This document shows positions 4,810 to 32,964 of a stretch of 39,845 nucleotides of DNA, in pieces. The stretch's first letter is position 1. The number at the start of each line of letters is the position of its first letter. Below the pieces are notes generated by a model. That model did not search any database. It saw nothing but the letters and a program-made list of their open reading frames with translations, and had not been told where the DNA came from. The stretch is taken from IMG/VR virus record IMGVR_UViG_3300038829_000102, positions 1 to 39,845 of that record, one strand, 5' to 3'. Both the position numbers and the translations under genes were made by a program. This stretch comes from a virus (Duplodnaviria; Caudoviricetes).

Positions 4810-6351
4810 ATGGCTGAGATTCCGGGTCGCGCGCTATTCGAGGAGTACGAGCGACGGCGTAGAGCCAAGGTCGCCGTCTCCGGCACGGTAGCCGCGATCC
4901 GGAAGGAGTTGTTCGCCCAGCAGAACGCTGTACACGATGATACATCTCGGAACAAGACGCTCCTATGCACCCGCCGCGCAGGCAAGACGCAGTATCACGC
5001 CCGCGGCGGGACGATCATCGCACTCGAAAACCCCGGCACCCTCCAACGTATCTGGGGAATCAACCGACTTCGCGCGAAGCAACTGATCTGGGAAGAACTC
5101 AAGGCTCTCATCCGCCGCCACAAGATTGATCTTGACCCGTCCTACAACAAGGGCCAGCCCAACGAGACCGAACTCACCGTAAGGTTCGCGAACAAATCGG
5201 AAATTCGTCTCCTCGGCGCCGACAAAGAGCAGGAGGCCGAGAAGAAACGCGGTGACAAGACGATTCGCGAAACGGTCCTTGAGGCCCAGCTCTTTGGCCA
5301 CTTTCTCCAGAAACTCGTAGAAGACATTGCCGAGCCCTGCCTCTTCGACTTGCAAGGTGACTTCGTTCTAGAAGGAACGCCCGGCCCTATTTGTGCTGGC
5401 TACTGGTTCGAGGTCTCGGGCCGAAACGACACCGACAGCCGTTGGATCTCGCCGGGCGGCAAAGACGGCATCGGTGCCGGTTGGAGCTGCCATCGCTGGA
5501 GCGTGCTGGACAATCCGTTCATGCCGCACGCGAAGGTCTCCCTTCTCGAACTCAAAAAGAAGCGTCGTTGGACGGAAGAGAGCCCGACTTACAAGCGTGA
5601 GTGGCGCGGTCTGTGGGTCAACGATCTCACGGCCCTCTTCTACAAGTTCGATCCGGCGCGCAACATCTTCCACCCGGAAGACTTCCAGCCGTGGGGACCG
5701 GGTTGGGAACACACGCTGGGATGGGACCTCGGCTCGATCGATGACATGGCGCTCGTGGTGTGGGGTTACCATCCGAGTTACCCGGACCTCTACGAGGCGT
5801 TCTCCTGGAAGCAGCCGGGCGCGAGCGCGTCCGAGGTTCTGGAGCAGATCGAACAACTAGAAAAGCGTGGCTTCAACTTCGTGAAGATGGTGGCGGACAC
5901 ACAGGGCGGCGGCAAGATGTACGTGGAAGAGGTCGAGCGCCGATACAAGCGCCACTTCGACGCCGCGAAGAAGTCCGACAAGTCCGATCACGTGCGCCTG
6001 ATGAACGATGACTTTCTCGGAGGATTCCTCAAGCTGGCGGACGGCTCGCCGTACCAACAGGAGATCGCGGCCCTCATGCGCGATCCGGAGTGGCCGCCCC
6101 CGGACAAGCCGAAGGCGCCCCCGCGCGAGAGCCCGAAGTGCCCCAACCACTGCTCCGATGCCGGCCTGTACGGTTACCGCGATGTCTGGCACTTCCTCCA
6201 TTCGCAGGAGGACTTACCGCCGCCACAGGGCTCGGAGCAGCACCATGCGGCCGAGGTACGTAAAATGCAGGAGGCCCTTGTCAAACGTGCCCACAAGCGG
6301 CAGAATCCGGACGACTACTTCGAAGCTGAGGAGTTTGACCCATGGCACTGA
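4810..6351 (+). CDS. terL: Terminase large subunit
   Basis: Walker A-like CTRRAGKT, coupling motif LEGTP, DNP, nuclease GWDLG...D, and a C-terminal NHCSDAGLY motif; lies upstream of the portal. Confidence 0.9.
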   Translation: MAEIPGRALFEEYERRRRAKVAVSGTVAAIRKELFAQQNAVHDDTSRNKTLLCTRRAGKTQYHARGGTIIALENPGTLQRIWGINRLRAKQLIWEELKALIRRHKIDLDPSYNKGQPNETELTVRFANKSEIRLLGADKEQEAEKKRGDKTIRETVLEAQLFGHFLQKLVEDIAEPCLFDLQGDFVLEGTPGPICAGYWFEVSGRNDTDSRWISPGGKDGIGAGWSCHRWSVLDNPFMPHAKVSLLELKKKRRWTEESPTYKREWRGLWVNDLTALFYKFDPARNIFHPEDFQPWGPGWEHTLGWDLGSIDDMALVVWGYHPSYPDLYEAFSWKQPGASASEVLEQIEQLEKRGFNFVKMVADTQGGGKMYVEEVERRYKRHFDAAKKSDKSDHVRLMNDDFLGGFLKLADGSPYQQEIAALMRDPEWPPPDKPKAPPRESPKCPNHCSDAGLYGYRDVWHFLHSQEDLPPPQGSEQHHAAEVRKMQEALVKRAHKRQNPDDYFEAEEFDPWH

Positions 6352-6629: not shown

Positions 6630-8582
6630 ATGAGTTACGCAATCGACCACACCAGCTTCAAGACCGGAAAACCGGCCGACACCGGGCAGGCCCTGGATGC
6701 CGGAGAGGTAGCTTGGTGGGAGGAAGCCGACGAAACCGCGCGCTGTGGTGCGTTCACGGGCGTGGTCAAGTCGCTGGCTGAGGACCAAGAGTTCCGCTCG
6801 CAGATGAACCTCCTCCACGCGCGCCTGTACGGAAACGCGGAGATTCTGGGCTTCGGGCTTCGCGAGTATGCGCGGTCGTCCCTCACGCACTCCATGCACT
6901 ACACGCCGCGCGTGAACCTGAACGTGATCGCAAGCGCGACGGACGCGCTGCACGCAAAGATCACGAAGTCCAAGCCGCGCCCGAGCTTCCAGACGGACGG
7001 CGCAACCTGGAAGATGCAACAGAAGGCGCGCAAGCTGGACAAGTGGACGCGCGGCGTCTTCTATGAGACGAAGATCTACCGGAAGGGCTCGGACGTGTTC
7101 CGAGATTGCGAGGTCTTCGGTACGGGCGGCCTGAAGCTGGTTCCGAACAAGAAGAAGCGCATCCAGTTCGAGCGCGTGTTCATCGATGAAGTGCTGGTGG
7201 ACGACGCGGACGGTTTCCTCGGCGCCCCCCAACAGATGTTCCACCGCATGAAGCTTCACAAGAGCGCCGTGCGGCGCCTCGTGCGCGCCTACCACAAGGG
7301 TGAGGACGCGAAAGCGAAGCTCGACCAGATCGACAAGGCGAAGGCCCCGGACGACACACACACCCTGAAGGGCTTCAACGACATGATCGAAGTCTTCGAG
7401 GGCTGGATGCTGCCCGACGAAGACGGCCAGGGCGGGCGTCACGTCATCGCGATCGAGGGCTGTGAGATCCTCTGCGAAGACTGGAAGATGAAGACCTTCC
7501 CCTTCGTCTGGATGCGTCTCTTTCCGCGTTTGCTCGGCTTCTTCGGGCAGGGTGCGGCCGAGCGTCTGATGGGCATCCAGATCGAACTGAACCGCCTGAT
7601 GAAGTCCGTCAGCGAACAACTCCGGCGCAAGGGCAAGGGGCGCATCTACGTACGCAAGGGCGCCGGTATTCCGACCAACAAGATCGGAAACGAACTCGTT
7701 CCGGTCATCGAGGTGAATGGCGACCCGAACACGGCCGTGCTTATCGAGAACATCAACGCGGTTGCTCCGGAGGAGTTCCAGCAGATCCAGACGCTCTACC
7801 AGAAGGCGTTTCAGGAAATCGGCCTCAGTGAACTTTCCGTTGCGGCGAAGAAGCCGAGTGGCCTGGATGCCGCGGTCGCGCTCCGCGAGTTCAGCGACAT
7901 CGAGACCGAGCGCTTCGTGAAGCCGGCCCAGGCGCATGAGGACTTCTATCTGGACGCAGCCGAGCTATGCATCGAGTACATGCGCGTGTCGGGCTCGAAG
8001 GCGTACAAGGTGAAGGTGCCCTCGCGGCGCTACACGATGGAGGTTGATTGGGCGGATATCGACCTGGACCGGGACGCCTATGTCATGCAGATGTTCCCTG
8101 TTTCGAGCCTGCCGCAGACACCGGGCGCGCGCTACCAGCGCGTGAAGGAGATGATGCAGGACGGCTTCATTGATGCCGCGGTCGCGCGCCGACTGCTGGA
8201 CATCCCGGACATCGAGGCTGAGGAGGATCTCGGAAACGCGGCGATGGACGACGCGGACGCCGTGATCAGCTATATCCTCGATGAGGATACGCCGAAGCTC
8301 TACCCTCCCGAGCCGTATCAGAACCTCGCGCTGCTCCTGAAACGCGCCACAGCTTCGTACCTCTTCGCACGTCACCACGGGTGCGACGAGAAGCGCCTGG
8401 AGATGCTCCGGGACTTGATTGATCAGGCGTCGAAGATGCTCGTACCACCGCCTGCGCCTCCGGCCCCGAACGCGATGCCCGCCCCGTCTCTTGCTGCACC
8501 GTCTCCGGCAATCTCCGGAGGCATCAACGTGAATGTTGCAGGAAATAAACCCCAACCCGTAGCACCACCCGTAATTGGGTAA
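6630..8582 (+). CDS. Portal protein
   Basis: 650 aa, helical, directly after terL; FGTG, PFVW...GFFGQG...IQIELN, and SGxA-like segments typical of podovirus portals. Confidence 0.85.
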   Translation: MSYAIDHTSFKTGKPADTGQALDAGEVAWWEEADETARCGAFTGVVKSLAEDQEFRSQMNLLHARLYGNAEILGFGLREYARSSLTHSMHYTPRVNLNVIASATDALHAKITKSKPRPSFQTDGATWKMQQKARKLDKWTRGVFYETKIYRKGSDVFRDCEVFGTGGLKLVPNKKKRIQFERVFIDEVLVDDADGFLGAPQQMFHRMKLHKSAVRRLVRAYHKGEDAKAKLDQIDKAKAPDDTHTLKGFNDMIEVFEGWMLPDEDGQGGRHVIAIEGCEILCEDWKMKTFPFVWMRLFPRLLGFFGQGAAERLMGIQIELNRLMKSVSEQLRRKGKGRIYVRKGAGIPTNKIGNELVPVIEVNGDPNTAVLIENINAVAPEEFQQIQTLYQKAFQEIGLSELSVAAKKPSGLDAAVALREFSDIETERFVKPAQAHEDFYLDAAELCIEYMRVSGSKAYKVKVPSRRYTMEVDWADIDLDRDAYVMQMFPVSSLPQTPGARYQRVKEMMQDGFIDAAVARRLLDIPDIEAEEDLGNAAMDDADAVISYILDEDTPKLYPPEPYQNLALLLKRATASYLFARHHGCDEKRLEMLRDLIDQASKMLVPPPAPPAPNAMPAPSLAAPSPAISGGINVNVAGNKPQPVAPPVIG

Positions 8583-9655: not shown

Positions 9656-10891
9656 ATGGGTGTTACGATTTCGAATCCGACGTTTGCTCTCAAGACGCTC
9701 TGGCCTCAGCGGCGCGTCGTCAACACGGTCTACAAGGATCACGCCTTCCTGGCGATGATTCCCAAGTCCGAGCAGTTCTACGGCGAGAACATGGTGATCG
9801 CCGTCCGGTACGCCGACACGCAGGGGCGTTCTGCCGGCTTCGGTGTGGCACAGGCAGCGGCTGGTGCACATGCCGGTGTTCGCTTCTACCTCACCCGCGC
9901 GGCCGACTACCAAGTCGTGAACCTCACGACTGAGGCGATCCTCGCGACGAAGAACGATCGAGGTGCGCTCATCCGGAACCTGGACACCGAGATGGGGTCC
10001 GGCATGAACAACATTGGCAAGTCGCTCGCCACGGCTCTGTTCCGCGGTCGTTCCGGCAACATTGGGCGCATTGGCGCTGTGGCGGCCGGACCTCCGGCAA
10101 CCGTCACGCTCCTGAACATCAACGACGTGACGAGCTTCGAGGTGGGCATGATTCTCGTGTCCTCGGCGACGCCGACCGGCGCGAACCGAGCGACTCCCGC
10201 CACGGCGACCATCACGAAGGTCAACCGCGACACGGGCGTGCTTACGTTCGCTGATGGCACCTTCGCAGGCACCAACTGGGCCGCAAACGATTACATCTCG
10301 GCGAGCGGCGACAACGCGAACGCCAGCGGCTCCGGCAATAAGGTGCTCGGTCTGGCGGACTGGATTCCGACCACGGCGCCGACCACGGGTGACTCGTTCC
10401 TCACGGTCGATCGCTCGGTCGATGCGACTCGCCTCGGCGGGCTCCGCATGGACGTGAGCGGGCTGAACCCGGAAGAGGGGCTCATCACGGTCCTCAGCCG
10501 ACTTGGCCGCGAAGGCGGGCGCCCGGACCATGCCCTCACGAACCACCTCGACTTCCGGAACATCGAGTTCCAGCTCGGGTCGAAGGTCGTCTACAAGCAG
10601 ATGGCTGTTGGTGAGATCGGCTTCACCGGAATCGAGGTCATCTCGGGAACGGGACGAGGAACCTGCACCCTGCTGGCGGATCAGGATGCTCCGGCCGGAC
10701 TCCTCTACGCGCTCCAGATGGACACGTGGAAGCTCCACTCGCTGGAAGAGTGCCCGATGGTGCTCGACCTCGACGGGAACAAGCTGTCGCGCGTCTACAA
10801 CGCCGACCAGTGGGAGGCGCGCATCGTGTACTTCGCAAACACGGCTTGCGACGCGCCCGGCTTCAACGGTGTCGCCACGATGCCGAGTTAG
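9656..10891 (+). CDS. Major capsid protein
   Basis: 411 aa after the scaffold gene, strong codon bias, double stop; organisation fits an HK97-fold capsid with an insertion. Confidence 0.85.
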   Translation: MGVTISNPTFALKTLWPQRRVVNTVYKDHAFLAMIPKSEQFYGENMVIAVRYADTQGRSAGFGVAQAAAGAHAGVRFYLTRAADYQVVNLTTEAILATKNDRGALIRNLDTEMGSGMNNIGKSLATALFRGRSGNIGRIGAVAAGPPATVTLLNINDVTSFEVGMILVSSATPTGANRATPATATITKVNRDTGVLTFADGTFAGTNWAANDYISASGDNANASGSGNKVLGLADWIPTTAPTTGDSFLTVDRSVDATRLGGLRMDVSGLNPEEGLITVLSRLGREGGRPDHALTNHLDFRNIEFQLGSKVVYKQMAVGEIGFTGIEVISGTGRGTCTLLADQDAPAGLLYALQMDTWKLHSLEECPMVLDLDGNKLSRVYNADQWEARIVYFANTACDAPGFNGVATMPS

Positions 10892-11388: not shown

Positions 11389-12087
11389 ATGACCGCCGTT
11401 GCGCTCTCGATACTGCGAACCCGCTCCAAGCGGCGCGCTGACATGGAGAACGCCTCCTTCGTCGGTGATGCTGAATGGCTGGACTACATCAACGAGGGAG
11501 CGAAACGGCTCCATGAGCTGCTGGTGGGCGCCTACGGGGAGGATTACTTCAAGAAGACGTCCGCCTTCAACACGGCCAACGGAACGAGCGACTACCCGCT
11601 TCCTTCCGACTTTTTCAAGTTGACGGGTGTGGACCTAACCGTTAACAGCAAGCCGGTTTCACTGAAGCGGTTCATGGAGCCCGAGCGCAACGCCTTCCGG
11701 AACGTCTCGGCAATCAACTGGTTCAGCGTGCCGCGCTACAAACTCGAAGGAAACAATCTGCGGCTCTATCCTGCGCCGGCCTCCGTGCTCGCGGGTGTAA
11801 TCATCTACATTCCGGTGCTTCAGGTTCTAGTTGGAGGCTCAACATTTGCAACATCCTTCGTGAACGACAGCGACACGTGCGACTTTCCGAATGGCTGGGA
11901 TAAGTTTATCACGGCCTATGCCGCGGAACAGGCACTCATGAAGGAGGAGTCCAGCACGCGCGAAATCCGAAGCCAGCTCGACCGCTGGGAGGCGGAACTC
12001 GTAGCGATGGCTTCCGACCGCGACGCGGCGAACTCGGTTCAGGCAGTAGATCACGATCTAGAGGATCTTGATCCGAGGTGGTGGTAA
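11389..12087 (+). CDS. Head-tail adaptor / tail tubular protein A-like
   Basis: LRTRSKRRADM...WLDYINEG...YPLPSDF...LRLYPAP pattern of podovirus adaptors; GGAGG RBS. Confidence 0.75.
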   Translation: MTAVALSILRTRSKRRADMENASFVGDAEWLDYINEGAKRLHELLVGAYGEDYFKKTSAFNTANGTSDYPLPSDFFKLTGVDLTVNSKPVSLKRFMEPERNAFRNVSAINWFSVPRYKLEGNNLRLYPAPASVLAGVIIYIPVLQVLVGGSTFATSFVNDSDTCDFPNGWDKFITAYAAEQALMKEESSTREIRSQLDRWEAELVAMASDRDAANSVQAVDHDLEDLDPRWW

Positions 12088-12390
12088 ATGGGCCTCAGTC
12101 TGTTTGATCGTCTCCAACACCCTGATGAGTTGGTAAACCGCATTCAGGATCGGATGAAAGCCGTAATCAACGCTGTCATCCAGAAACCGCTCGTGGATGG
12201 TCATCTGGTGACGGCCACCGTAGCGCCTGCTCAAACAGCAGTGGCGCATAAACTAGGAAGGTTACCAAGGGGGTATTTCGTGGTTAGTGGTCAGGCCAGC
12301 ATTATCGGCCTATCAGCGGCGGCTGATACTAATTTCCTGTACGTGTCAAGCAGTGGCGGTAGCGAGACTGTAACTTTCTGGGTGTTCTAA
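12088..12390 (+). CDS. Small tail-associated virion protein
   Basis: 'VAHKLGRLPRGYFVV' motif common in small podovirus tail genes; abuts both neighbours. Confidence 0.55.
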   Translation: MGLSLFDRLQHPDELVNRIQDRMKAVINAVIQKPLVDGHLVTATVAPAQTAVAHKLGRLPRGYFVVSGQASIIGLSAAADTNFLYVSSSGGSETVTFWVF

Positions 12391-18974: not shown

Positions 18975-21328
18975 TGGCCAAGGTGCGCGTCATCGCCCCG
19001 GATGGCCGGGCAGGTTCGATCGAGGACTCCGAGCTGGAGGCCGCGAAGGCGGCGGGCTACACGGTCGAAACCGAGAAGGACGTGAAGCGGCGCGGCTTCG
19101 AGTCGCAGGGCCTCCGCACGGCCGCGGAAGGTGCGGCGCGCTCGGTGACGCTCGGGCTCTCGGATCCGTTCATGAAGGGCTACGGGGTGCCAGCCGAGGA
19201 CATCGCCGGCCGGCGCGAAGCGAACCCAGGTGCCGCGCTCGTGGGCGAGCTGGGAGGCGCTATGCTCCCCATCGGTGGCGGGCCTCTCGCGGCCAAGGCG
19301 GGCCTCGCAGTTGAGCGTGCGGTAGCCGGCGCGGCCCCGACCGCGTTCCGGACGCTCGGCGCCAAGGCGGCCGGAGGTGCGGCAGGGGGCGGGCTCTGGG
19401 GACTCGGTGCTGCCATCTCGGAAGATGCGCTCTCGGACGGTGACCGTCAGCTTGCAGGTGAGAAGCTCTTGGCGATCGGTGGCGGTGGTGTCGTGGGCGC
19501 CGGGCTCGGCGTGATCGAAGGCGCGCTCGGGATGGCCGGAAAGGCGGCCGTCAACAAGCTGGCCGGTCAGTCGCTGCGAGGTAAACTCTCCGAGTTCTCG
19601 GAAGAGGTGATGGTGCGGCAGATCGCCCAGCAGTCCGACTTCAAGAAGATGAACCTCTTCGACCGTCGCCGCGATGTTGGCCGGTACGCGATTGAGAAGG
19701 GTTGGGCGAAGGAGGCCGCGCTCGGTGGCGTGGAGGCACTCCACTCCGCTGCGGCGGCCGATAGCGAGCAGATCGGCCTCCAGATGAGTGGCGTCCTGCG
19801 GCAGGCGGACTCCCGCGTTCACGGCGTGGACACGGCGCGCATTCTTGTACGCGCTCAGAATGATGTGCTCCAGGCGATCGAGAAAGATCCGCTGATGAAG
19901 CCTTCTTACGCGGCCGTGAAGAACTACGTGGATGAGCTTCAGACGCGCCCCTACTCGTTCGAGGAACTGTGGAGTCTACAGAGCAACCTGCGCAAGAAGG
20001 TGGGGCCAACCGAGCCTACCGTGTTCAAGGAGTCGCTCTGGAAGCTCCGCAAGATCATCCGCGATGAATTGATTGATCAGGCCGAGTCGATCTCTCCGCA
20101 CTTCGGGGTTCAGCTCAAGAAGCTAAACAAGCACTATGGACTCTCGGAACAGATTGAGCAGCTTGCCGAGAAGCGCCTCATTCAGCAGGAAGGTAATCGC
20201 TACGTTGGTGCATCTGACTACCTCGCAGGAGGCGCCGCTGCGATTGCAGGCGCTACTACTGCTGGCCCGGCTGGCGTGCTCGTCGGAGGCGTCGCCGCGC
20301 TCGCCAACAAGTTAGCGCGGGAGCGCGGTGGATTCGCCATCGCCGAGATCGGAGACCGTCTTGCGAAGTCGAAAGTCATCGGAAACATGGCCTCCAGTTT
20401 CAAGAAACGTGTGGACACCATGCTTCGTGAATCACCGGAGCTGCTGGGTGCCTACCGCGTTCCACTTGAGCAGGCCGCCGCCCGAGGCGCGATGGATCTT
20501 CTCGGAACGCACATTCAGCTCATGCAGCACGATCCTGAGTACGCCGGTCACATCGGTGTGGTGGAGGAAGACCCTCAACTGACCGGCGAGTATCTCCAAA
20601 AGGGCGAGCAGATTAGCGCGGTCGGCGGCATCTTGACGGGCTTTGACGCGCAGGCTGATGGCGCCATGGATAGGTTCCTCGGCCGCGCCGCGGGTCGACC
20701 GGGCGCCCCGAAGCAGGCGAAGCGCTCCTTGGCAGACTTCAACAGCCGAATTACGTCGCTCACAGCGTTAGCGCAACAAGGCGGGGCACATCTTCCTAGT
20801 TTGGACGGTGTGGCGCCGGAGACTTCCATGATGCTTCAGATCGCGTCCTTGAACGGGGCAAACTTCCTGCTGGAGAAGGCGCCAAAGAACCCGTTCGCCG
20901 GCCAGATGGCGGCGCTCTCGAAGCCCTGGAGCCCCTCCGAGGCGTCGCTCTCGAAGTGGTATCGCTTCGTGGAGGCGATCGAGCGGCCCCAGCACGTGCT
21001 GGAGGAACTGGCAGGTGGATCCGTGATGCCGGAGCACGTGGAAGCCATGGCGGCCGTTTATCCGAAGCTGCTGGAGGATCTGCGCCAGCGGATGCTCTCG
21101 CGCATGTCGGAGCTGGAGGATACGCTTCCTTACTCAAAGCGTCTGGCGCTCTCTGGATTTCTCGGCACGGACATCCTGGGCCTGTCCTCGGAACAGTTGA
21201 TGCTCCTGCAAGGGTTGCATGGCGAGGCCCAATCGCCGAAGATGGGCGGGTCGCCTGACGGACGCCAAGACGTGAACCAAGAGAAAAACCTGGAAACCCA
21301 GGCCCAACGAATGGAGAAACGAGCATGA
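18974..21328 (+). CDS. Internal virion (ejection) protein
   Basis: 784 aa with Gly/Ala-rich hydrophobic segments (GAARSVTLGLSD..., AAGGAAGGGLWG) typical of channel-forming ejection proteins. Confidence 0.62.
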   Translation: MAKVRVIAPDGRAGSIEDSELEAAKAAGYTVETEKDVKRRGFESQGLRTAAEGAARSVTLGLSDPFMKGYGVPAEDIAGRREANPGAALVGELGGAMLPIGGGPLAAKAGLAVERAVAGAAPTAFRTLGAKAAGGAAGGGLWGLGAAISEDALSDGDRQLAGEKLLAIGGGGVVGAGLGVIEGALGMAGKAAVNKLAGQSLRGKLSEFSEEVMVRQIAQQSDFKKMNLFDRRRDVGRYAIEKGWAKEAALGGVEALHSAAAADSEQIGLQMSGVLRQADSRVHGVDTARILVRAQNDVLQAIEKDPLMKPSYAAVKNYVDELQTRPYSFEELWSLQSNLRKKVGPTEPTVFKESLWKLRKIIRDELIDQAESISPHFGVQLKKLNKHYGLSEQIEQLAEKRLIQQEGNRYVGASDYLAGGAAAIAGATTAGPAGVLVGGVAALANKLARERGGFAIAEIGDRLAKSKVIGNMASSFKKRVDTMLRESPELLGAYRVPLEQAAARGAMDLLGTHIQLMQHDPEYAGHIGVVEEDPQLTGEYLQKGEQISAVGGILTGFDAQADGAMDRFLGRAAGRPGAPKQAKRSLADFNSRITSLTALAQQGGAHLPSLDGVAPETSMMLQIASLNGANFLLEKAPKNPFAGQMAALSKPWSPSEASLSKWYRFVEAIERPQHVLEELAGGSVMPEHVEAMAAVYPKLLEDLRQRMLSRMSELEDTLPYSKRLALSGFLGTDILGLSSEQLMLLQGLHGEAQSPKMGGSPDGRQDVNQEKNLETQAQRMEKRA

Positions 21329-21834
21329 AGCCGATTTTGAAGTACCTGTTTACGGCGGTGGCGTTCTCCACCGGAATCGTTTGCGTGGCACTTGCCGACA
21401 CGACCAACGGAACGGTCGTAGGCTCGGATCTTCTCGTCAAGTCGAAGACGATCACGGTTGCGGACGCCGTGGCCACCCAGGTGGCTGCGCTTACCTCGAT
21501 CTCGGGCGTATCCATCGATCGCGGCGGCGGTGTGGCGGCGGTGGTCTGTGCCGAGTCAACTCGGACGATCACCAGCGGCACCATGCGCGCCTACGTGTTC
21601 ATGCCGGAGTTCGAGCCGAACCGCGATGCCGGCGCGGGCGTAAGTTACCTCTGGCTTCCGTACCCCCCGCTGGACTTCACGATCGGCGGAACTACACAGC
21701 GCTGTCATGCCAGCGGCGACAAACAGAGCTTCTCGGGAATCGGCCGTATCACTTGGCTCGCGGACACGGTGGTTGTCTCGGCCGGTACGACCGTCGTGCT
21801 GACTCACTCAGTTCGTAAAGGAATGCCTAAATGA
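21325..21834 (+). CDS. Signal-peptide-bearing beta-rich protein (putative exported/virion protein)
   Basis: MKPILKYLFTAVAFSTGIVCVALA|DTT: basic N-region, hydrophobic core, ALA cleavage site; 2 Cys in the mature part. Confidence 0.65.
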   Translation: MKPILKYLFTAVAFSTGIVCVALADTTNGTVVGSDLLVKSKTITVADAVATQVAALTSISGVSIDRGGGVAAVVCAESTRTITSGTMRAYVFMPEFEPNRDAGAGVSYLWLPYPPLDFTIGGTTQRCHASGDKQSFSGIGRITWLADTVVVSAGTTVVLTHSVRKGMPK

Positions 21835-22745
21835 AAAAGATCATTCTCTGGTGTTCGGCCGCTGTTTTGTCGCTGACGGTGGTCGCGGCGCCGCTCGTGA
21901 TGGCGCAACCAGTTCAGGGCGATAACGCAGGGACCGGCCCGGTGATCGGGACCGCCGGCACATTCGGTAGTACGGTGACCGCCGACAACTTCGTGGCCAC
22001 TGCCGCTACCGTCAACTACACGATGTCTAGCAACGGTAGGCTTTACTACCAGGGAGCTGGAAGCAACTACGTTAAAGGAAATGCCAGCGGCCATCTTGAA
22101 GGTACGGCCGGGTTCCAGTCCAGTATTGCGAGCGGGAGCGACGGTTTTGTCTTTACTAACGAAGGTGAGATTCAGTGGCCGGACACGAAGATTGCCGAGT
22201 CGGGCACCACAGTTGTTGTTACTGCGGCCTCCGGCATACAGACCACTGGCGACACCATTTCGATGACCAACACATCCAGCCAAAGCTTTTATTGCGCTGG
22301 GGCCACTGGGCTGTGTGAGTTTGTTAGCAACCTGGGTGACGCAACGACTTCGCCAACTGTCGGTGCCGTTCGCATCAAGGCAAACAACAATATCGCAGAT
22401 ACAGACTTGATTGCCGCATTCACGAACTCAGCGAACATCACCGTGGCCGGAGTCAACGAAGATGGCGCCGTGGATATCGGCTCGTTCACGGATGACTCCG
22501 CGACCACCGGAAACCGCACGGTCAACAAGCAGTGCGGCATCAACGCCTTCGCAGCCGCCGCGACCGCAATCACCATCACCAACTCCTACGTGACGGCGGC
22601 TACGGCTGTATTGTGTACGTTGAACACGAACGATGCGACCGCGACGCTTAAGAACTGCGCCACAGCGGCGGGTTCCTTCACCGCCACCATCACAGCCGGT
22701 GCCACCGGCACCACGAAGCTCGCGTGGTGTGTGGTCGGATTTTAA
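21831..22745 (+). CDS. Signal-peptide-bearing fibre-like protein
   Basis: MKKIILWCSAAVLSLTVVAAPLVMA|QPV. The C-terminus 'TTGNRTVNK..G..FAAAATAITITNSYVT...TNDATA...AGSFT' resembles a recurrent phage fibre C-terminal module (recognised from memory). Confidence 0.65.
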   Translation: MKKIILWCSAAVLSLTVVAAPLVMAQPVQGDNAGTGPVIGTAGTFGSTVTADNFVATAATVNYTMSSNGRLYYQGAGSNYVKGNASGHLEGTAGFQSSIASGSDGFVFTNEGEIQWPDTKIAESGTTVVVTAASGIQTTGDTISMTNTSSQSFYCAGATGLCEFVSNLGDATTSPTVGAVRIKANNNIADTDLIAAFTNSANITVAGVNEDGAVDIGSFTDDSATTGNRTVNKQCGINAFAAAATAITITNSYVTAATAVLCTLNTNDATATLKNCATAAGSFTATITAGATGTTKLAWCVVGF

Positions 22746-22763
22746 CCTGGAGGGCATAAAATC

Positions 22764-23045
22764 ATGAACAAGTTCATTGCCGTTGCAGTCCTGTTTGCCG
22801 CCTGGGCATACGCTCAGACGTGCATCGTTTCGGCGCCCCCGGCGCCCCCCAACCCGCGCGAGATGGTGGTCAAGTTCACCAATCCGGATGGAGGTTGCCG
22901 TCCCTGCGTCGCGGTCGCGGTCGTCAACAACGGAGCCCGCCCGAACGAGTACCCTCAGCACAATGCGAAGTGCGACAACGCCTGTGCCATCGCACGACAG
23001 GCCGCCGCAAACGATAACGGCTGGGATGACGGTGGCGTACCGTGA
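22764..23045 (+). CDS. Small secreted Cys-rich protein
   Basis: MNKFIAVAVLFAAWAYA|QTC; GGAGG RBS. Confidence 0.7.
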   Translation: MNKFIAVAVLFAAWAYAQTCIVSAPPAPPNPREMVVKFTNPDGGCRPCVAVAVVNNGARPNEYPQHNAKCDNACAIARQAAANDNGWDDGGVP

Positions 23046-23596
23046 AATACCTTGCGCCCATTCTGCTCCTTTCCTGTGGCACCATTAGGCCCACGCTCGA
23101 TGTCACGTGCGAGACGGCATGTGGTCTACGGTTTCTCGGAGACTTCCAAAGCTCGAAGGAGTACCCCGAGGGGTCCACGCTCTGGACTTGTGAGGCCCTT
23201 CAGGTGGTGGAGCAGGCCATGCTCACGCAGTTTCCCAAGGTAAACGATGCGCGATTTAAGAGCACCTGTGAGGTGCTCAGCACATGGACCCTGTCCATGC
23301 ACGAGAAGGCTTTCTGGAAAGAGCCCGGCTTCTCGCACACCATTGCCGGCTTGACCGACTGCCAGAGCCGCCACAGCGTCATATCGAACTCACCGAGCGA
23401 CCGCTCCACGCTTCCGCACGAGATTGCTCACGCTGTTCAGGACTGCACGCCGAACGATTGTGCTCACCCCGGTGATGATGACCACCATGCCTGTTGGGCC
23501 GAGAACGGTATCTACCGCGCCCTCAGCAACAGTAACCTGGATGCTTTCAGGCACATGCCTTCCGATCTGATAATTCGGAGAGACGGGGGCTCGTGA
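23042..23596 (+). CDS. Putative lipoprotein with zincin HExxH motif
   Basis: MKYLAPILLLS|C lipobox-like start; IAGLT...TLPHEIAHAV; 8 further Cys. Confidence 0.6.
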   Translation: MKYLAPILLLSCGTIRPTLDVTCETACGLRFLGDFQSSKEYPEGSTLWTCEALQVVEQAMLTQFPKVNDARFKSTCEVLSTWTLSMHEKAFWKEPGFSHTIAGLTDCQSRHSVISNSPSDRSTLPHEIAHAVQDCTPNDCAHPGDDDHHACWAENGIYRALSNSNLDAFRHMPSDLIIRRDGGS

Positions 23597-23937
23597 GCCT
23601 TGGAACGTTCAGACGGCTCCAAACCCGGAGCCTATACACGGTAGCCGCCACGCTTACCACGGTGGCCGTCTATGACACGACGGGGCATAGCGTCGTGAAC
23701 GTGGAGATTCAAAACCCGTCCGGCGTGGATACCATCAACGCACAGGTGGAGTGCGCCACCGACTCAGCGGGGCCGTGGGATGTAATGGAGTGGGATGGGC
23801 TACAAGCGATTCTTCCCGGAGAAACTAGAAACGAGTCGTTCTCGAAAATGGGGAAGACGTGGATTCGAGTCCGCGCCGTGAGCACCGGCAGCGCCATCCC
23901 TAGCGTTCCGGTATCCTTCCACATGGAAAGCGCATGA
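23593..23937 (+). CDS. Small beta-sandwich virion-type protein, no signal peptide
   Basis: GTGA/ATGA overlaps on both sides; QVE..DS.GPW...WIRVRA pattern. Confidence 0.6.
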   Translation: MSLGTFRRLQTRSLYTVAATLTTVAVYDTTGHSVVNVEIQNPSGVDTINAQVECATDSAGPWDVMEWDGLQAILPGETRNESFSKMGKTWIRVRAVSTGSAIPSVPVSFHMESA

Positions 23938-25223
23938 GTCTCGTCCCGCTACTTCTGTTGGCCCAGCTCGGCCCCACCACACCGTCCCTCTCACGAGAGG
24001 AGCCGGTGCAACTTTATGACGAGAGTGCGCGTCTCGGACACGTCTCACGCATCAACTGCTCCGGCGCAGGGATCACCTGTACGCGCAGCGGCAATACCGG
24101 GACGGTGACGGTTGCAGGCGGCAGTGGCGCACCTACTGACGCCACCTATTGGGTTGGCGCAGCACACGCCAGCCTCTCGGCTGAAATCAACCTGGGCGCG
24201 CTCGGCACGGGGCTGGTCATCAACACCACCGGCACGCCGAGCATCAAGGGATCCAACACCTGCACGAACCAGTTTCCTCGCTCCGACAACGCCAGCGGGA
24301 CATGGACGTGCGCGAGCGTGGCTGACGCGGACCTCGCCTCGAGCTACTCGGGCGTGGGCACGTGCACCAACCAGTTTGCCCGCGTACTCAACGACAACGC
24401 GGCCCCCACGTGCGCGAGCGTCGTCTCGGCGGACATGAACATCACGACGACGAGCTGCACCAACCAGTTCGTGACCGCCATCTCGGCGGGCGGTGTCGGC
24501 ACCTGCACCACCGACACGCTCGCAGGCGCGCAGCACGCCAATCAGGGCACCACGACCACCGTGCTCCACGGCAACGCGGCGGGGAACCCTTCGTGGGCCG
24601 CGGTGACGCTCAACACCGACACGACCGGCGTGCTCAACGTCACGAACGGCGGCACGGGTGCAGCTCCGGGCGCTGGCGACCAACTGCTCGTGAGCGACTC
24701 GACGGCTGCCGCAACGTGGCGGTCGGTGCCTGACTGCACGGACACGGGTGGGAACCACCTGAACTACACTGCCGCCAGCAACACCTTCTCGTGCGGCACC
24801 AGCGGCGGCGGGAGCGGCTACAACCTCATCGAGGAAGACGGGACGCCACTCACCGCCAGAACCACCATTGATTTCACGGGCGCCGGCGTCACCTGCTCGG
24901 ACGTTGCTGGCGAGACCCGGTGCAACGTTCCAGGCGGCTCCGGCAACATCGGCAGCTTCACGGTGACATTCGGCACAGACGCCATCAGCCGCTACGAGAG
25001 CGACGAGGCCACCGTCTCCGCCGCGTGGGTCGGCGCGTCGTCTGACATCGTGCTGGTGCCGAAGTGTCACGTGGTGGTCGGCAACAACACAGTCGAAAAC
25101 TGCTTCGTCTCGCGCCTTCAGTGTGCCGTCGTGAGCGTCAGCGCGGGCGTCTCGTTCAACGTCCGCTGCCACGCAGAAGCGACAGCCAGCGGCAGCTACA
25201 CCATCACGTACACAGGAGCATGA
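23934..25223 (+). CDS. Cys-rich tail fibre-like protein with a short hydrophobic N-terminus
   Basis: Three xCTNQF...TC repeats, 'GVLNVTNGGTG' and 'LHGNAAGNPSW' fibre-type motifs, 16 Cys; begins MSLVPLLLLAQ. Confidence 0.7.
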   Translation: MSLVPLLLLAQLGPTTPSLSREEPVQLYDESARLGHVSRINCSGAGITCTRSGNTGTVTVAGGSGAPTDATYWVGAAHASLSAEINLGALGTGLVINTTGTPSIKGSNTCTNQFPRSDNASGTWTCASVADADLASSYSGVGTCTNQFARVLNDNAAPTCASVVSADMNITTTSCTNQFVTAISAGGVGTCTTDTLAGAQHANQGTTTTVLHGNAAGNPSWAAVTLNTDTTGVLNVTNGGTGAAPGAGDQLLVSDSTAAATWRSVPDCTDTGGNHLNYTAASNTFSCGTSGGGSGYNLIEEDGTPLTARTTIDFTGAGVTCSDVAGETRCNVPGGSGNIGSFTVTFGTDAISRYESDEATVSAAWVGASSDIVLVPKCHVVVGNNTVENCFVSRLQCAVVSVSAGVSFNVRCHAEATASGSYTITYTGA

Positions 25224-25225
25224 TC

Positions 25226-25888
25226 ATGAGACTTATCGCATTACTTGCGTTGCTGCCGACCATAGCGCTCGCACAGGGCGTCACCATCAAGAGCGGTGCC
25301 AGCACCGACACCGCCACTATCGACACGAACAAGAATCTCCGCACCAACCTTGGCCCATCAACGAGACAGTCGTTCACGGCGACGAGCAGCGTGCTGGTCA
25401 CGACTGCCATCTACTCGCTGAGCCTCGAAGCGCCAGCTGCGAACGGCATCAAGATTTCGCAAATCTGCGTGGGCTACAGCATCGGGGCCACTGCGGCGGG
25501 CACTATCGTCACCACGACCATCAACCGGCGCACCACCGCAAGCTCCGCGGGTACGGCGTTGACCAACAACGGCACGGGTGCCGATGCTGTGACCGACCTG
25601 AACGGTGCTGCGACCGCATACGGCGGCATCGCTCGACGCACCGGTACGTTGGGCACCATCGGCGCCAGCATCGATGCCTGGAGCTTCAGACAGAGCGTGC
25701 TGGCTGCTACCACCAGCAATGACACTGGCCCACCTGCACACATCATGTGCAAGCAGTACGGCGTGGACGGAGCGCAGGCGCTCACGGTGCCCAGCGGCGT
25801 GACGAACGGCATCAGCGTGGTGGTGAGCGCTGGTGGCGCAGGCTCGGTCGCAGTCGGGTCGATTCAGATTACCTTTATCTCGGAGTGA
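25226..25888 (+). CDS. Signal-peptide-bearing Thr/Ala/Gly-rich beta protein
   Basis: AGGAG RBS; MRLIALLALLPTIALA|QGV (alternative ATG at 25220); 2 Cys. Confidence 0.7.
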   Translation: MRLIALLALLPTIALAQGVTIKSGASTDTATIDTNKNLRTNLGPSTRQSFTATSSVLVTTAIYSLSLEAPAANGIKISQICVGYSIGATAAGTIVTTTINRRTTASSAGTALTNNGTGADAVTDLNGAATAYGGIARRTGTLGTIGASIDAWSFRQSVLAATTSNDTGPPAHIMCKQYGVDGAQALTVPSGVTNGISVVVSAGGAGSVAVGSIQITFISE

Positions 25889-25890
25889 CA

Positions 25891-26193
25891 ATGCTTCTTG
25901 CGATCTGCATTCTGGTAGGGCTGAATGTCGTTCTGAGTTTCTTGCTGGTCGTGCTGGTGACCGGCTTCTCGCGAACGAGGAAGGCTGTGGACTGGCTTCA
26001 GAACTTCGCCGATGAGGGTCTCGCGCTCGCGAAACATGCCAAGGCGGCCCATCTCTCGAACAAGCAAGCCTTCTCCGCAAGAGATGAAGAGGAGGAGGCT
26101 GTCCGCTGGGTGGTGGAGCGTGCCGCTAGCGTGAAGGTGAAATGCACTCGTGCTCAAGCCGCCAAGCTGGTGGCCATTCGGAGGTCATCGTGA
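25891..26193 (+). CDS. Membrane protein (holin/lysis-accessory candidate)
   Basis: N-terminal TM helix MLLAICILVGLNVVLSFLLVVLV; GGAG upstream. Confidence 0.6.
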   Translation: MLLAICILVGLNVVLSFLLVVLVTGFSRTRKAVDWLQNFADEGLALAKHAKAAHLSNKQAFSARDEEEEAVRWVVERAASVKVKCTRAQAAKLVAIRRSS

Positions 26194-26324: not shown

Positions 26325-26466
26325 ACGCAAGAAGTGGCTTATCCGGGCCGGCGTCGCGATCTCCGGCATCGGGCTAGGCTACCTCTGCCCCTCGTTCCCG
26401 GAGAGCCTTCAGGCGTTCTGTCACCTCTTCGCGAAGGCACTTTCCCTGTTAGGAGGATCACCGTGA
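26284..26466 (+). CDS. Small membrane protein (holin-like)
   Basis: GGAGG RBS; basic patch RRRKK followed by a hydrophobic segment; stop overlaps the endolysin start. Confidence 0.55.
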   Translation: MAPKTEAEARLARRRKKWLIRAGVAISGIGLGYLCPSFPESLQAFCHLFAKALSLLGGSP

Positions 26467-26957
26467 CGCGCGAACTCATCCACCGCGATATCAACCTGGA
26501 CCTCGCCTACCCGAAGTTCCTGGAGCGCCTCCTTGAGGCGAAGGCGAAGGCGAAGGAGCGCGGCGCCAACTACCTGTCGACCGAGATGCACCGTGCCATG
26601 GAGCGCTCGCGGGTGCTTTACCTGAACTACAAGAAGAACGGCGGCCCCCGAGCCGCTCCACCTGGAGCCAGCGGCCATAACTTCGGCATCTGCTCCGATG
26701 AGGCGCTGATCGTCAAGCCGAGCCCGAACCGCGTCATCCGCTGGAACCCGGAGGATTACAACATCCTCTATGAGGAACTGGCGAAGGTGGGACTGAAGAA
26801 CGGCTCCGGCTACAACGATTGGCCACACGTGGACTTTCCTGGGTTTATAACGGCCGAGGAGTTGAGGCCGCTTCTACAGATTTGGGAGAACAGCCCGAAT
26901 CTCCCGACACTGGACCGTCTCAAGGAAGTGTGGAAGTATCTCGATCTCCACACTTGA
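26463..26957 (+). CDS. Endolysin, M15-family Zn peptidase
   Basis: R...APPGASGHNFGICSD...DWPHVD matches the SxHxxGxxxD and DxxH motifs; GGAGG then GTG. Confidence 0.82.
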   Translation: MTRELIHRDINLDLAYPKFLERLLEAKAKAKERGANYLSTEMHRAMERSRVLYLNYKKNGGPRAAPPGASGHNFGICSDEALIVKPSPNRVIRWNPEDYNILYEELAKVGLKNGSGYNDWPHVDFPGFITAEELRPLLQIWENSPNLPTLDRLKEVWKYLDLHT

Positions 26958-26969
26958 AAGGAGAAGTTC

Positions 26970-27269
26970 ATGTTCGCAGTGATTTTGCAGGCAGCGGGGG
27001 GCGGGGTTGACGCATCACAGGAAGCCGTTCAGGCCTTACTCGATGGAGCGGCACAAGGTAACGTCGTACTGGCGATCGTTGGCGGGGTTGTCCTCGCTGC
27101 GCTCGTGGTGCTCGGCATCCTGAAAAAGGATCACCCTCTCGTCCAGCCGATCGCCGGGATTTTGCTCAAACTCGGGCGCACTTTCTCGAAACCGAAGGCG
27201 AATCCAGCCGATCAGCAGGGTGTTGCCGCGGTTGTTCCGATCAAGAAGTTGGATCAGGAGCAGAAGTGA
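26970..27269 (+). CDS. Membrane protein, holin candidate
   Basis: Long hydrophobic segment VVLAIVGGVVLAALVVLGIL; AAGGAG RBS; follows the endolysin. Confidence 0.6.
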   Translation: MFAVILQAAGGGVDASQEAVQALLDGAAQGNVVLAIVGGVVLAALVVLGILKKDHPLVQPIAGILLKLGRTFSKPKANPADQQGVAAVVPIKKLDQEQK

Positions 27270-27568
27270 TTTTGAGGGCCACGCTGTTGGCCCTCCTGTT
27301 GGCCTCCTCTGCGATGGGCGCGCAGGGTGAGGCCATCAGTTTTGACCAGCCTCTACAGTGCGGCAAGCACCTTCTTCCCCCCAGCGTGTGTTACCCGATG
27401 GAAGCTTTTCAGGTAATGGACGCGGAGGTGAGGCGGCTTCAGGCAGTTGAACAGGACGCTAAGGCGGCTGGTGATCGGCGCTTGATCTTTTTCGCAACTG
27501 GGGCGATACTCGGAGCGATAACTGGGCTGTTACTTGGAGGCTACATCGCGTGGACCCTGCTTCGATAA
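27266..27568 (+). CDS. Signal peptide plus C-terminal TM protein (spanin-like candidate)
   Basis: MILRATLLALLLASSAMG|, short coiled coil, C-terminal LIFFATGAILGAITGLLLGGYIAW. Confidence 0.5.
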   Translation: MILRATLLALLLASSAMGAQGEAISFDQPLQCGKHLLPPSVCYPMEAFQVMDAEVRRLQAVEQDAKAAGDRRLIFFATGAILGAITGLLLGGYIAWTLLR

Positions 27569-28984: not shown

Positions 28985-29392
28985 GTGTTGACTCTTACGA
29001 TCAGCCTGCTTCTCGTATCCCCTCCGGGGGATATCTGCGATTTGTACCCTGAGCGGTATACCGCCCCACGGTATAGCGACGAGTGTGCCGGCCAAATCGT
29101 GTGCCCGTTCACCCGTTTTGGCCGGGTATGCGTCTGCGCGCCTCCGGTGATCAGTCTGGGCTCGTGGGACCCGCGCGAGTCGCCGGCCGAGTGGTCGCGC
29201 TCAAGCTACGGAACGCCGGCTTCGTTCGGGGCGACCGATAAGCTAGAGGTGCTGGAGAACATCAACGTGGACGCCTTCCGGGCGGCCGTGCGAGCCCTGG
29301 AGGCCGGCTTTCTGGACAGCGGCCAATACTTCCTGCTGAAGGTCGCCGAGAACGTGAAGAAGGAAATTCGAAAGATCGAGGCCGTCCGATGA
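28985..29392 (+). CDS. Hypothetical protein with hydrophobic N-terminus and Cys cluster
   Basis: ORF ends in an ATGA overlap with the next gene; start uncertain. Confidence 0.55.
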   Translation: MLTLTISLLLVSPPGDICDLYPERYTAPRYSDECAGQIVCPFTRFGRVCVCAPPVISLGSWDPRESPAEWSRSSYGTPASFGATDKLEVLENINVDAFRAAVRALEAGFLDSGQYFLLKVAENVKKEIRKIEAVR

Positions 29393-29990: not shown

Positions 29991-30080
29991 TAACCGGTAT
30001 GAAAGAGACCATGCCTATCCGTTTGACTCGCTTCGCGAAAACGGATCTCTTTGAAGGTCTCTTTCATGCCTCTCCGGTTA
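29991..30080. other. Long nested hairpin at the convergence of the two arms (terminator, processing site or ncRNA)
   Basis: TAACCGG/CCGGTTA, ATGAAAGAGACC/GGTCTCTTTCAT and ATCCGTTT/AAACGGAT form nested stems. Confidence 0.55.
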
Positions 30081-30677
30081 ACTCCCAAGACAACCCTCGT
30101 TGCCCCAAGTTACCCACCCTTCCCGTGGCGCCCTGGCGAACAGTTCAATTCTGGGGCCGTCCCCGGCAAGTCGAGCGAACAGTGCGAACGGATCGGGCGG
30201 TTTCTCGGAATGCTTTGTGACTTTCGCTGAGAACCACGACACCTCGTGCCGAGACGCGGGCTTCACCTTGCCGCGCACGCCGAACACGAGGTGCTCCGTT
30301 GCTCCGCGCACCCAATAACCGCACCCAAAGAACGGCCGAGTGCCTGTGCGTTTGTCCGTCTTCGCCCACGTCACCATCCCTCGGTAGTCGAAGCCCCAAG
30401 CCGACAGAACATGGAGGCATTTCGGCAAGAGCGCGTTGACCACCCAGATCGCGCAGAGACAGTCCGACGCCGCCCGTGACTGTACAGGCAGCGCCTCGAT
30501 CTCGGCGAACGTCATCGTTGGGTAGTGCTTGAACTGCGCACCGTGCCAGCCAGTCCCGTCCAGTTCAGACGTACGGGTGGAGTAGGAGTAGCGCCACGGC
30601 GGGTCTGCCACGATCAGCCGGAACGGCCCCGCTGGGAGCGGAGGAGCCTGAAGAACTGCGCTTCGGAAGTCATTCAT
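30078..30677 (-). CDS. MT-A70-family N6-adenine methyltransferase
   Basis: LIVADPPW, HYPTM, AWGFDY...W.K, G.GYWVR..TEH, HSEKP, RIELFAR...GW..WGNE. Start is ATG 30677 or GTG 30737. Confidence 0.9.
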   Translation of the reverse strand: MNDFRSAVLQAPPLPAGPFRLIVADPPWRYSYSTRTSELDGTGWHGAQFKHYPTMTFAEIEALPVQSRAASDCLCAIWVVNALLPKCLHVLSAWGFDYRGMVTWAKTDKRTGTRPFFGCGYWVRGATEHLVFGVRGKVKPASRHEVSWFSAKVTKHSEKPPDPFALFARLAGDGPRIELFARAPREGWVTWGNEGCLGS

Positions 30678-30812
30678 AGAGATCTGCGAGGTAACGATCC
30701 TCTCGGGTTTAGCCCGAATCCGGCCCGCGGTGGCCACAGTCTCCGGACGAACTCAGCAAGCGCGTGCCCGCTCTCGCCTATCCGCCGTCCTTCGCGCCGT
30801 CGCGCGATCCTT

Positions 30813-32148: not shown

Positions 32149-32399
32149 GACTTGACCTCCATCACTACAAGCCACTCGTTCAGACCTACGCCGACGTTGA
32201 ACGATGGGCCGACCTGCACCTTACGGTATTCAATCGAGTTGCTGTAGGCAATGCGCACCTTTGCCTTATCATCTCGAATGTCAAGGTCCGCCGCAAGGTT
32301 CAGGTAATCGCCTGTAGGTAGCCCGATGAACGCGGGATAGTTGCCCGTGTCCCGTTTGTAGCGGAACACCAAGTCCATGAATGTTTCGCTCATCTTCAT
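32145..32399 (-). CDS. Hypothetical protein
   Basis: GGAGG RBS; ATGA overlaps at both ends. Confidence 0.65.
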   Translation of the reverse strand: MKMSETFMDLVFRYKRDTGNYPAFIGLPTGDYLNLAADLDIRDDKAKVRIAYSNSIEYRKVQVGPSFNVGVGLNEWLVVMEVKS

Positions 32400-32887
32400 C
32401 GTTTCCTCCAAACTAACAAGACGCACGGGAAAGGGGCGCCGGTCATCTTCGAGTCATCATCCGGATGCTTTCCGAATTTGATTCTACCCGGACAGTAGTG
32501 CGTCCGCAAGATCGAATCCGGACGATCCCGGTAAGGCTCTACCAGATCCTGCCACCAAGCCTGTTCCGGGCGCGTGGCCGGCAGGAGCATGCATATCGAC
32601 TCGGTCGGAGCGAGTAGGGAGTGGGCCGCATGGAACCATGCCTTCTCTACCCACGGCCGGATGTCCGAGTAAGGCGGATTACACCACACGTGGCCATCCC
32701 AATCCTGCTTTAGTCCGTCCTGCTCTTTAGTGAAATAGCGCTCGGCACAATGGGCGTTTTCGTGGGCCGCAACATCGAGTGTGTACCCCGTGACACCTGC
32801 CTTTTCCGCACACCAGTAGAGCGTCTCGATGGGCGTGTAGCGCTCGTCTTTGAACGGATTGTCCGAGTTGCTGATGTGGGGCTTCAT
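32396..32887 (-). CDS. Phage Dam-like DNA N6-adenine methyltransferase
   Basis: DERYTP, LDVAA..NA.C.RYFTKEQDGLKQDW, VWCNPPYS, LLPA, RIKF, APFP. Confidence 0.88.
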   Translation of the reverse strand: MKPHISNSDNPFKDERYTPIETLYWCAEKAGVTGYTLDVAAHENAHCAERYFTKEQDGLKQDWDGHVWCNPPYSDIRPWVEKAWFHAAHSLLAPTESICMLLPATRPEQAWWQDLVEPYRDRPDSILRTHYCPGRIKFGKHPDDDSKMTGAPFPCVLLVWRKR

Positions 32888-32964
32888 CGCCAGTCCTTTA
32901 TAAGCACGGCCGCTAGACCGGTCAGCACGATGGTTATAACGACGTAAGCACATAGTTCTAACAT
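32884..32964 (-). CDS. 26-aa single-TM micropeptide
   Basis: GGAG RBS; MLELCAYVVITIVLTGLAAVLIKDWR; the stop overlaps the methyltransferase ATG (ATGA). Below the ORF-track size cutoff. Confidence 0.55.
   Translation of the reverse strand: MLELCAYVVITIVLTGLAAVLIKDWR

Follow-up and report, generated by a model that had tools for sequence, protein, structure and literature searches.

The IMG/VR virus record IMGVR_UViG_3300038829_000102 is one viral contig of 39,845 bases, and the entire record was analysed (the window). Its late block runs unbroken from the terminase gene to the lysis genes and holds, at 21325..25888, a cassette of seven genes that we name here by their start positions (Table 1). 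An earlier reading made from the letters of this DNA, hereafter the sequence-only reading, had proposed that the cassette encodes tail fibres which are exported, oxidatively folded and joined to particles at or after lysis. We recovered all seven open reading frames at the coordinates it had given, together with export-type N-termini on six of the seven genes (hydropathy rule and inspection by eye) and identical mature cysteine counts for the six leader-bearing products (2, 6, 5, 8, 16 and 2 in gene order). The eight of 23042 come in addition to its lipobox Cys12, and the leaderless 23593 product has one cysteine. The genes had also been described as coupled. This holds for six junctions with ATGA or GTGA overlaps of 4 nucleotides (at 21325, 21831, 23042, 23593, 23934 and 25220, the last being an in-frame ATG two codons upstream of 25226), but not for 22745/22764, since an 18-nucleotide gap with a GGAGG site separates these genes.

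Leaders were called by an uncharged hydrophobic window, and cleavage sites were placed by eye. Positive calls were obtained for 6/7 cassette genes, 5/9 downstream lysis and membrane genes, none of the 15 minus-strand genes and one of the 16 upstream late genes, the adaptor, which we judged a false positive. In the independent contig L038, the six cassette genes that it covers have identical N-termini and cysteine counts. The leader pattern is real and non-random, and it is not an artefact. Searches against Pfam, PHROGs and NCBIfam gave no match for the seven proteins except a weak one of 23593 to a PHROG 'virion structural protein' (E 0.008).

Table 1. Cassette genes, candidate docks and virion landmarks of the window
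Coordinates	Strand	Feature	Basis
4810-6351		Terminase large subunit	Family match
6630-8582		SU10-like portal	Family match
9656-10891		Major capsid protein	Family match
11389-12087		SU10-type adaptor	Family match
12088..12390	+	Leaderless protein with helix and HxLGR; second candidate dock	Kept between adaptor and nozzle across related loci
		Nozzle-like gene (1075 amino acids)	Lies after the adaptor and the 100-amino-acid gene (12088..12390)
21325..21834	+	Signal-bearing small beta protein, likely fibre base; 2 mature Cys	Leaderless relatives directly 5' of fibre genes
21831..22745	+	Signal-bearing fibre; C-terminal tip of about 80 amino acids common with leaderless phage fibres	Tip alignment
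22764..23045	+	Small, putatively exported Cys-rich protein with CxxC and CxxxC; 5 Cys	Sequence
23042..23596	+	Putative lipoprotein with HExxH (residues 126-130)	Lipobox; motif kept in homologue
23593..23937	+	Leaderless predicted jelly-roll protein, likely cytoplasmic base or dock of exported fibre	AlphaFold2 model, homologues
23934..25223	+	Fibre; leader short and hydrophobic; 16 Cys in eight local pairs; predicted H-type-lectin-like tip	Homologues, predicted fold
25220..25888 (start 25220 or 25226)	+	Beta-rich protein with signal; a single Cys pair, conserved	MW202637 homologue

The 23934 product has a Gly/Thr-rich, modular shaft, and its 16 cysteines form consecutive pairs spaced 7-19 residues apart within repeated modules. 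The monomer model was confident at the C-terminus. Here, residues 334-429 resembled the C-terminal domains of tailspikes, AP22 gp53 and pyocin fibres as well as H-type lectins (Z 5.5-7.7); among the top 12 fold rows were nine tailspike, tail-fibre or pyocin-fibre chains, two H-type lectins and one further pyocin chain. At the level of predicted fold, the tip corresponds to the lectin-like domain that tailspikes and pyocin fibres carry. Foldseek gave weaker support, with no match for 23934 at E 0.001. Sequence searches yielded 516 matches, of which the best 120 were examined. An N-terminal leader was present in 96 of these 120. It had a basic n-region in 63 cases, 36 of them ending A/S/G-Q, and no basic n-region in 33, 18 of which end A/S/G-Q at residue 9-15. 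Three matches with longer leaders resume at the same QL(T/G)P start. The weak leader of 23934 is, judged by these matches, a trait of the family. The 24 matches without an N-terminal leader comprised 15 with internal or late signals, one with an internal hydrophobic stretch and eight that appeared incomplete by eye, so a true leaderless homologue may exist. The short leaders may resemble myxobacterial ones.

For 21831 we obtained 41 matches, about half of them leaderless. The leaderless match P0192 hits PHROG tail-fibre families, and L011:1209-2159 is a leaderless, Cys-free homologue encoded between adaptor and nozzle. The common tip and the predicted lectin-like tip support the fibre nature that had been proposed for 21831 and 23934. 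The proposal that the window has no other fibre gene was likewise borne out among the genes scanned.

Leader and cysteine pairing were then compared across homologues. Mature cysteine counts were even in 89/96 signal-bearing 23934 matches (again from the best 120 of 516), compared to 8/16 nozzle matches. For the 21831 tip, an even count of at least two was found in 17/20 signal-bearing versus 8/21 leaderless proteins (P0194 and P0201, which have ambiguous N-termini, were left out), and three cysteine column pairs (in 7, 6 and 4 sequences) were restricted to signal-bearing tips. In the aligned sequences, leader and cysteine pairing go together. Since the proteins combine leaders with paired cysteines, the fibres are likely to fold outside the cytoplasm.

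The survey of related phages suggested by the sequence-only reading was carried out on 31 nozzle-homologue and six capsid-homologue loci, with nine records extended. Nineteen distinct loci show the region past the third ejection gene and were read by eye (L013 counted with L012). In 17 of these, a leaderless protein of 109-156 amino acids is followed by leaderless fibre-like genes; in L023, a single signal-bearing gene closes a leaderless block. L017 encodes a leaderless 21325-type protein and then two proteins with a signal, and in L009 the slot holds no fibre. In L012/L013, both 21325 and the 21831 tip have leaderless counterparts, arranged as in the window. Since leaderless counterparts occupy the same slot, a virion role of the cassette is more likely than the sequence-only reading had shown. 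The cassette fibres lie at the fibre-slot position of the late virion block. In several relatives a leaderless fibre is encoded in a second slot, between adaptor and nozzle. In L042, which belongs to the same portal, capsid and adaptor family, a signal-bearing 23934 homologue lies between the helix gene and the nozzle, its leader overlapping the end of the upstream helix gene. A leaderless small gene plus a short-leader protein also occurs in L041 and in the complete genome MW202637, both podophage-like and unrelated, and in MW202637 leaders are found on genes following its capsid and nozzle-sized genes. Since base and tip each exist in a leaderless and an exported version that share slots, this family offers matched pairs for direct tests. 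As a separate observation, signal-bearing genes also occur in the head regions of two other phages (L043:812-1756 and L056:13413-13853, the latter directly after the annotated capsid gene), which suggests exported head decorations as well.

Which cytoplasmic protein could receive such fibres? For 23593 the AlphaFold2 model reached a predicted local distance difference test score (pLDDT) of 91 and resembled the jelly rolls XepA, YomS and Ena (Z 10-11) as well as many unnamed phage proteins. Among 26 sequence matches, the 23 short ones hold 0-1 cysteines. The 23593 profile aligned over 84 columns with the small proteins that precede the leaderless fibres of relatives (E 4e-4, probability 34%), and controls reached no better than E 0.048, over 22 columns or fewer, which hints at a distant relationship. 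Being leaderless and a predicted jelly roll, 23593 would be the likeliest cytoplasmic dock, as had been proposed. A second family of small proteins includes 21325 along with three members that lack a leader: 21325 shares 28% identity over 98 amino acids with the leaderless L012:17700-18167 (pairwise E 0.002), and a three-sequence profile finds a further leaderless member from outside the alignment, L017/L048 (E 1.9e-11, local set). Profile comparison gave no link between the 21325 and 23593 families (E 0.26), and none of the L029-type small proteins to either. PDB sequence searches with the 23593 or 12088 profiles or with 23042 returned no match of note, and scans for loci with 23593 and 25226 were likewise negative.

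In addition, fusion proteins point to 12088. Seven 23934 matches consist of a 12088-type domain (profile probability 97%, E 8e-11), an uncharged hydrophobic stretch into which the last strand of this domain leads, an AxA-like site and then a 23934-type body. These fusions would tie an exported fibre to a cytoplasmic tail-slot protein; they count as one lineage, since the seven proteins are mutually related. In L043, a contig of a metagenome-assembled genome labelled Vicinamibacteria that represents a different phage, one such fusion gene directly follows a nozzle-sized gene. Cysteine numbers after the inferred cut were even in 15/15 proteins with internal or late signals. The fusions thus read as polyproteins that would be split across the membrane. 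The 12088-type profile had no match in 21831 or 23934, which therefore lack a same-chain virion anchor of this type. A second kind of fusion was seen in P0031, P0075 and P0125, where a leaderless N-terminal domain of about 120-150 amino acids precedes an internal signal and a 23934-type fibre. A short, conserved amphipathic motif closes the P0039-type fusions and L043:7348-8610, and the next gene again bears a signal; head-to-tail chaining of segments is a possible reading of this arrangement.

Our preferred interpretation, to which we assign a probability of about 0.65, is that the 21831 and 23934 fibres are exported by Sec, fold in the periplasm and are captured by particles at lysis. The late genes would be expressed together; head, tail, 12088 and 23593 would be assembled in the cytoplasm, and the 21831, 23934, 21325 and 25226 products would cross the inner membrane via Sec with loss of the leader, acquire disulfides and stay in the periplasm until lysis. 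Upon failure of the inner membrane at lysis, finished particles would capture the fibres, probably through small jelly-roll bases. The likely partner of 23934 would be 23593, a cytoplasmic product that the particle already carries, and the exported 21831 and 21325 products would probably pair with each other; 12088 would be an alternative dock. The gene sequences argue strongly for export and oxidation of the fibres, which may form trimers; capture by the virion, presumably at lysis, is moderately indicated, and the identity of the dock is tentative.

The sequence-only reading had counted all six exported products as fibre parts, which fits 21831 and 23934. The 21325 product is small and base-like, 25226 has no role assignment and is probably a further exported appendage part, and 22764 and 23042 do not fit. 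The 22764 product, with an odd cysteine count and no fibre features, is not fibre-like by its sequence; it had no family match and no homologue among the fetched loci. A CxxC that follows a beta strand gives it a loose likeness to thioredoxin-type sites, although the protein is too short for that fold. The sole homologue of 23042, in MW202637, keeps the lipobox cysteine, HExxH, a later histidine and most cysteines, so 23042 is likely a membrane-bound peptidase, that is, a putative accessory zinc metallopeptidase rather than a fibre, which would act from the membrane. The 23042 locus scan hit a sugar-aminotransferase locus, judged spurious. The 25226 product shares 40% identity and both cysteines with a neighbour in MW202637, and in both genomes the gene lies 3' of a 23934-type gene; its Atlas look-alikes were unnamed viral clusters with a low recognition score.

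Known podophage and R-pyocin fibres are made leaderless in the cytoplasm. Podophage fibres and tailspikes and R-pyocin fibres (AP22 gp53, gp54, LKA1 gp49, Pam1 tailspike) resemble the cassette in their late-block position after ejection genes, the predicted H-type-lectin-like tip and the Gly/Thr-rich modular shaft. However, the cassette fibres differ by the export-type leader, the local cysteine pairs and the missing same-chain N-terminal anchor. By sequence, the cassette proteins are like podophage fibres and bases, but depart from the canonical leaderless, self-anchoring form. The receptor-binding protein pIII of filamentous phages is a virion protein that reaches the periplasm via Sec and acquires its disulfides there. 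Inoviruses, however, assemble at the membrane during extrusion, whereas the phage of the window is tailed and of lytic type, with head and tail forming in the cytoplasm. A cultured tailed phage with leader-bearing proteins annotated as virion structural is Cellulophaga phage phi18:3 (KC821620), where classical leaders occur on 3/12 'structural protein, MS/MS' proteins in the fetched stretch (gp085-gp087). One of them, gp087, matches PHROG tail families. The record is silent on leaders, and our leader rule also flags gp120, which we read as a false positive.

Several points weigh against export and capture at lysis. The interpretation is drawn from the genes of an uncultured short-tailed phage with no cultured relative, and some DNA is missing from the contig. 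The leader rule gives false positives (the adaptor and 2/23 short 23593 matches). The cysteine statistics ignore kinship, and the 8/21 leaderless 21831 tips noted above also hold two cysteines. Virion disulfides can form in air without export (PMC13576161), so disulfides alone are no proof of export and the leaders carry the argument. The overall 23934 monomer model was poor (predicted template modelling score, pTM, 0.28), and the tip Z-scores stay below 8, possibly a generic level for the tool, although the list of tip matches is coherent. Fold matches of the 23593 model are generic jelly rolls, with XepA as the top phage one, and the link of 23593 to the small proteins of relatives is weak, as the probability of 34% suggests. 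As a precedent, the phi18:3 proteins are non-homologous and Cys-poor (0, 1 and 3 cysteines) and may have been co-purified. Finally, the cassette is sporadic: a 23934 homologue was absent from all 28 nozzle/capsid relatives, and of 30 records the two that matched had been found via the 23934 family.

This sporadic occurrence (absence from 28/28 relatives) also suits the most probable alternative, in which the exported proteins stay with the infected cell and mask receptors, block superinfection or serve as adhesins. Signal-bearing, phage-like fibres do exist on cell surfaces: Bdellovibrio bacteriovorus MAT fibres combine a signal peptide, phage-like fibre parts and tip disulfides and are cell-bound, with a conserved domain of about 130 amino acids after the signal and, mostly, an S74 chaperone (PMC10769870). 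The cassette shares signal peptide and fibre modules with them, has no Pfam S74 match in its proteins and includes a lipoprotein; moreover, phage signal-peptide genes were previously read as host-envelope modifiers (PMC10367356). However, MAT fibres are encoded by cells, whereas the cassette is part of a virus record, set between genes such as terminase, portal, capsid and adaptor. It is coupled into the late block, its GC content at third codon positions (GC3, 0.70-0.83) is similar to that of virion genes, and promoter- and terminator-like sites show no excess over shuffles. No integrase was found among the window genes scanned, although a temperate lifestyle could still be missed in an incomplete contig. 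Cell-bound products would leave the late block without a fibre gene. In two different virion slots, homologues with a signal take the place of leaderless fibres, and some homologues are fused to a domain from a tail slot. We therefore consider this alternative unlikely.

In a second alternative, the 23934 leader is not cleaved but acts as a hydrophobic docking peptide for the 23593 base, or as a membrane tether acquired by the particle, with disulfides forming in air after lysis or while tethered. The head spike of RcGTA offers a model. There, the jelly-roll pentamer Rcc01079 holds the fibre Rcc01080 via a short hydrophobic N-terminal peptide (residues 2-10), and no export is mentioned in the part of its description available to us (PMC7296036). 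A small jelly-roll gene followed by a fibre gene recalls 23593/23934, so RcGTA supports the dock idea but raises this alternative as well; Rcc01079 itself was not among the 23593 fold matches listed, where many jelly rolls score alike. The 23934 leader has neither a basic n-region nor AxA, and in the window, L007 and L041, a small gene without leader precedes a protein with a short K/R-free leader. Against this stand the basic n-regions of 63/96 signal-bearing matches, 36 of them ending like the short ones, the three longer leaders that continue with the same start, and the even cysteine counts in 32/33 short-leader matches. In addition, an uncleaved docking leader offers no explanation for 21325, 21831, 22764 and 25226 with their classical leaders. 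We rate it as still less probable than cell-bound products.

The same low probability applies to exported proteins that are freed at lysis as decoys or XepA-like escape aids and never become particle-bound, with 23042 acting on the envelope. XepA, the top phage protein among the 23593 fold matches, is an exported protein that mature particles lack (PMC6834076), and this supports non-virion alternatives; the cassette abuts the lysis genes, and 23042 looks like a peptidase. But 23593 is leaderless, the fibres are linked to tail genes by their slots and by the fusions, and 21831 and 23934 showed no catalytic domain. A phage moron, finally, is disfavoured by the gene coupling, the virion-like GC3 and the lack of a promoter or terminator excess.

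The prevailing view is that tailed phages finish their particles in the cytoplasm, ahead of lysis. If the fibres mature in the periplasm, host range would depend on the Sec and disulfide machinery of the host, and progeny would be unable to adsorb before lysis. Many 'secreted hypothetical proteins' of phages, now read as cargo, would be receptor-binding proteins. With slightly better than even odds, tailed phages may more generally build particles in two compartments, with heads, tails and jelly-roll docks made in the cytoplasm and disulfide-clasped fibres in the periplasm, joined at lysis; the switch from leaderless to exported would have occurred slot by slot within one family, and in some lineages dock-fibre polyproteins would be split by host signal peptidase. 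We found no account of exported tail fibres or of this assembly route in the literature within reach, which excluded most subscription papers. The novelty lies in the assembly route; the parts themselves are of known kinds.

Beyond the nozzle-like gene, three long Cys-free genes are probably ejection genes, judged by position and size. Replication genes lie on the minus strand. The contig is incomplete, since an open reading frame runs off position 1; the missing DNA lies outside the late block. No annotated phage record matched the capsid, the portal or 21831, and three matched the polymerase. A nozzle search of genome contigs found nothing and gave no host. On the minus strand, 762-1418 was considered as a tail fibre and rejected, its PHROG tail-fibre match falling within a 5-residue repeat; the gene contains a long 15-nucleotide tandem repeat and is of the pentapeptide-repeat type by eye. 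Downstream of the cassette, 26463-26957 is an endolysin candidate. It has no family match of its own, and its homologue L009:18725-19252 matches Peptidase_M15_4/VanY. On either side lie two spanin-like candidates without family match, 25891-26193 with an N-terminal membrane helix and 27266-27568 with a signal peptide, a coiled region and a C-terminal membrane helix. Further on, 28985-29392, 3' of a phosphoesterase gene, encodes a small short-leader, Cys-containing protein without family match, and 30078-30737 and 32396-32953 (minus strand) encode two DNA methyltransferases.

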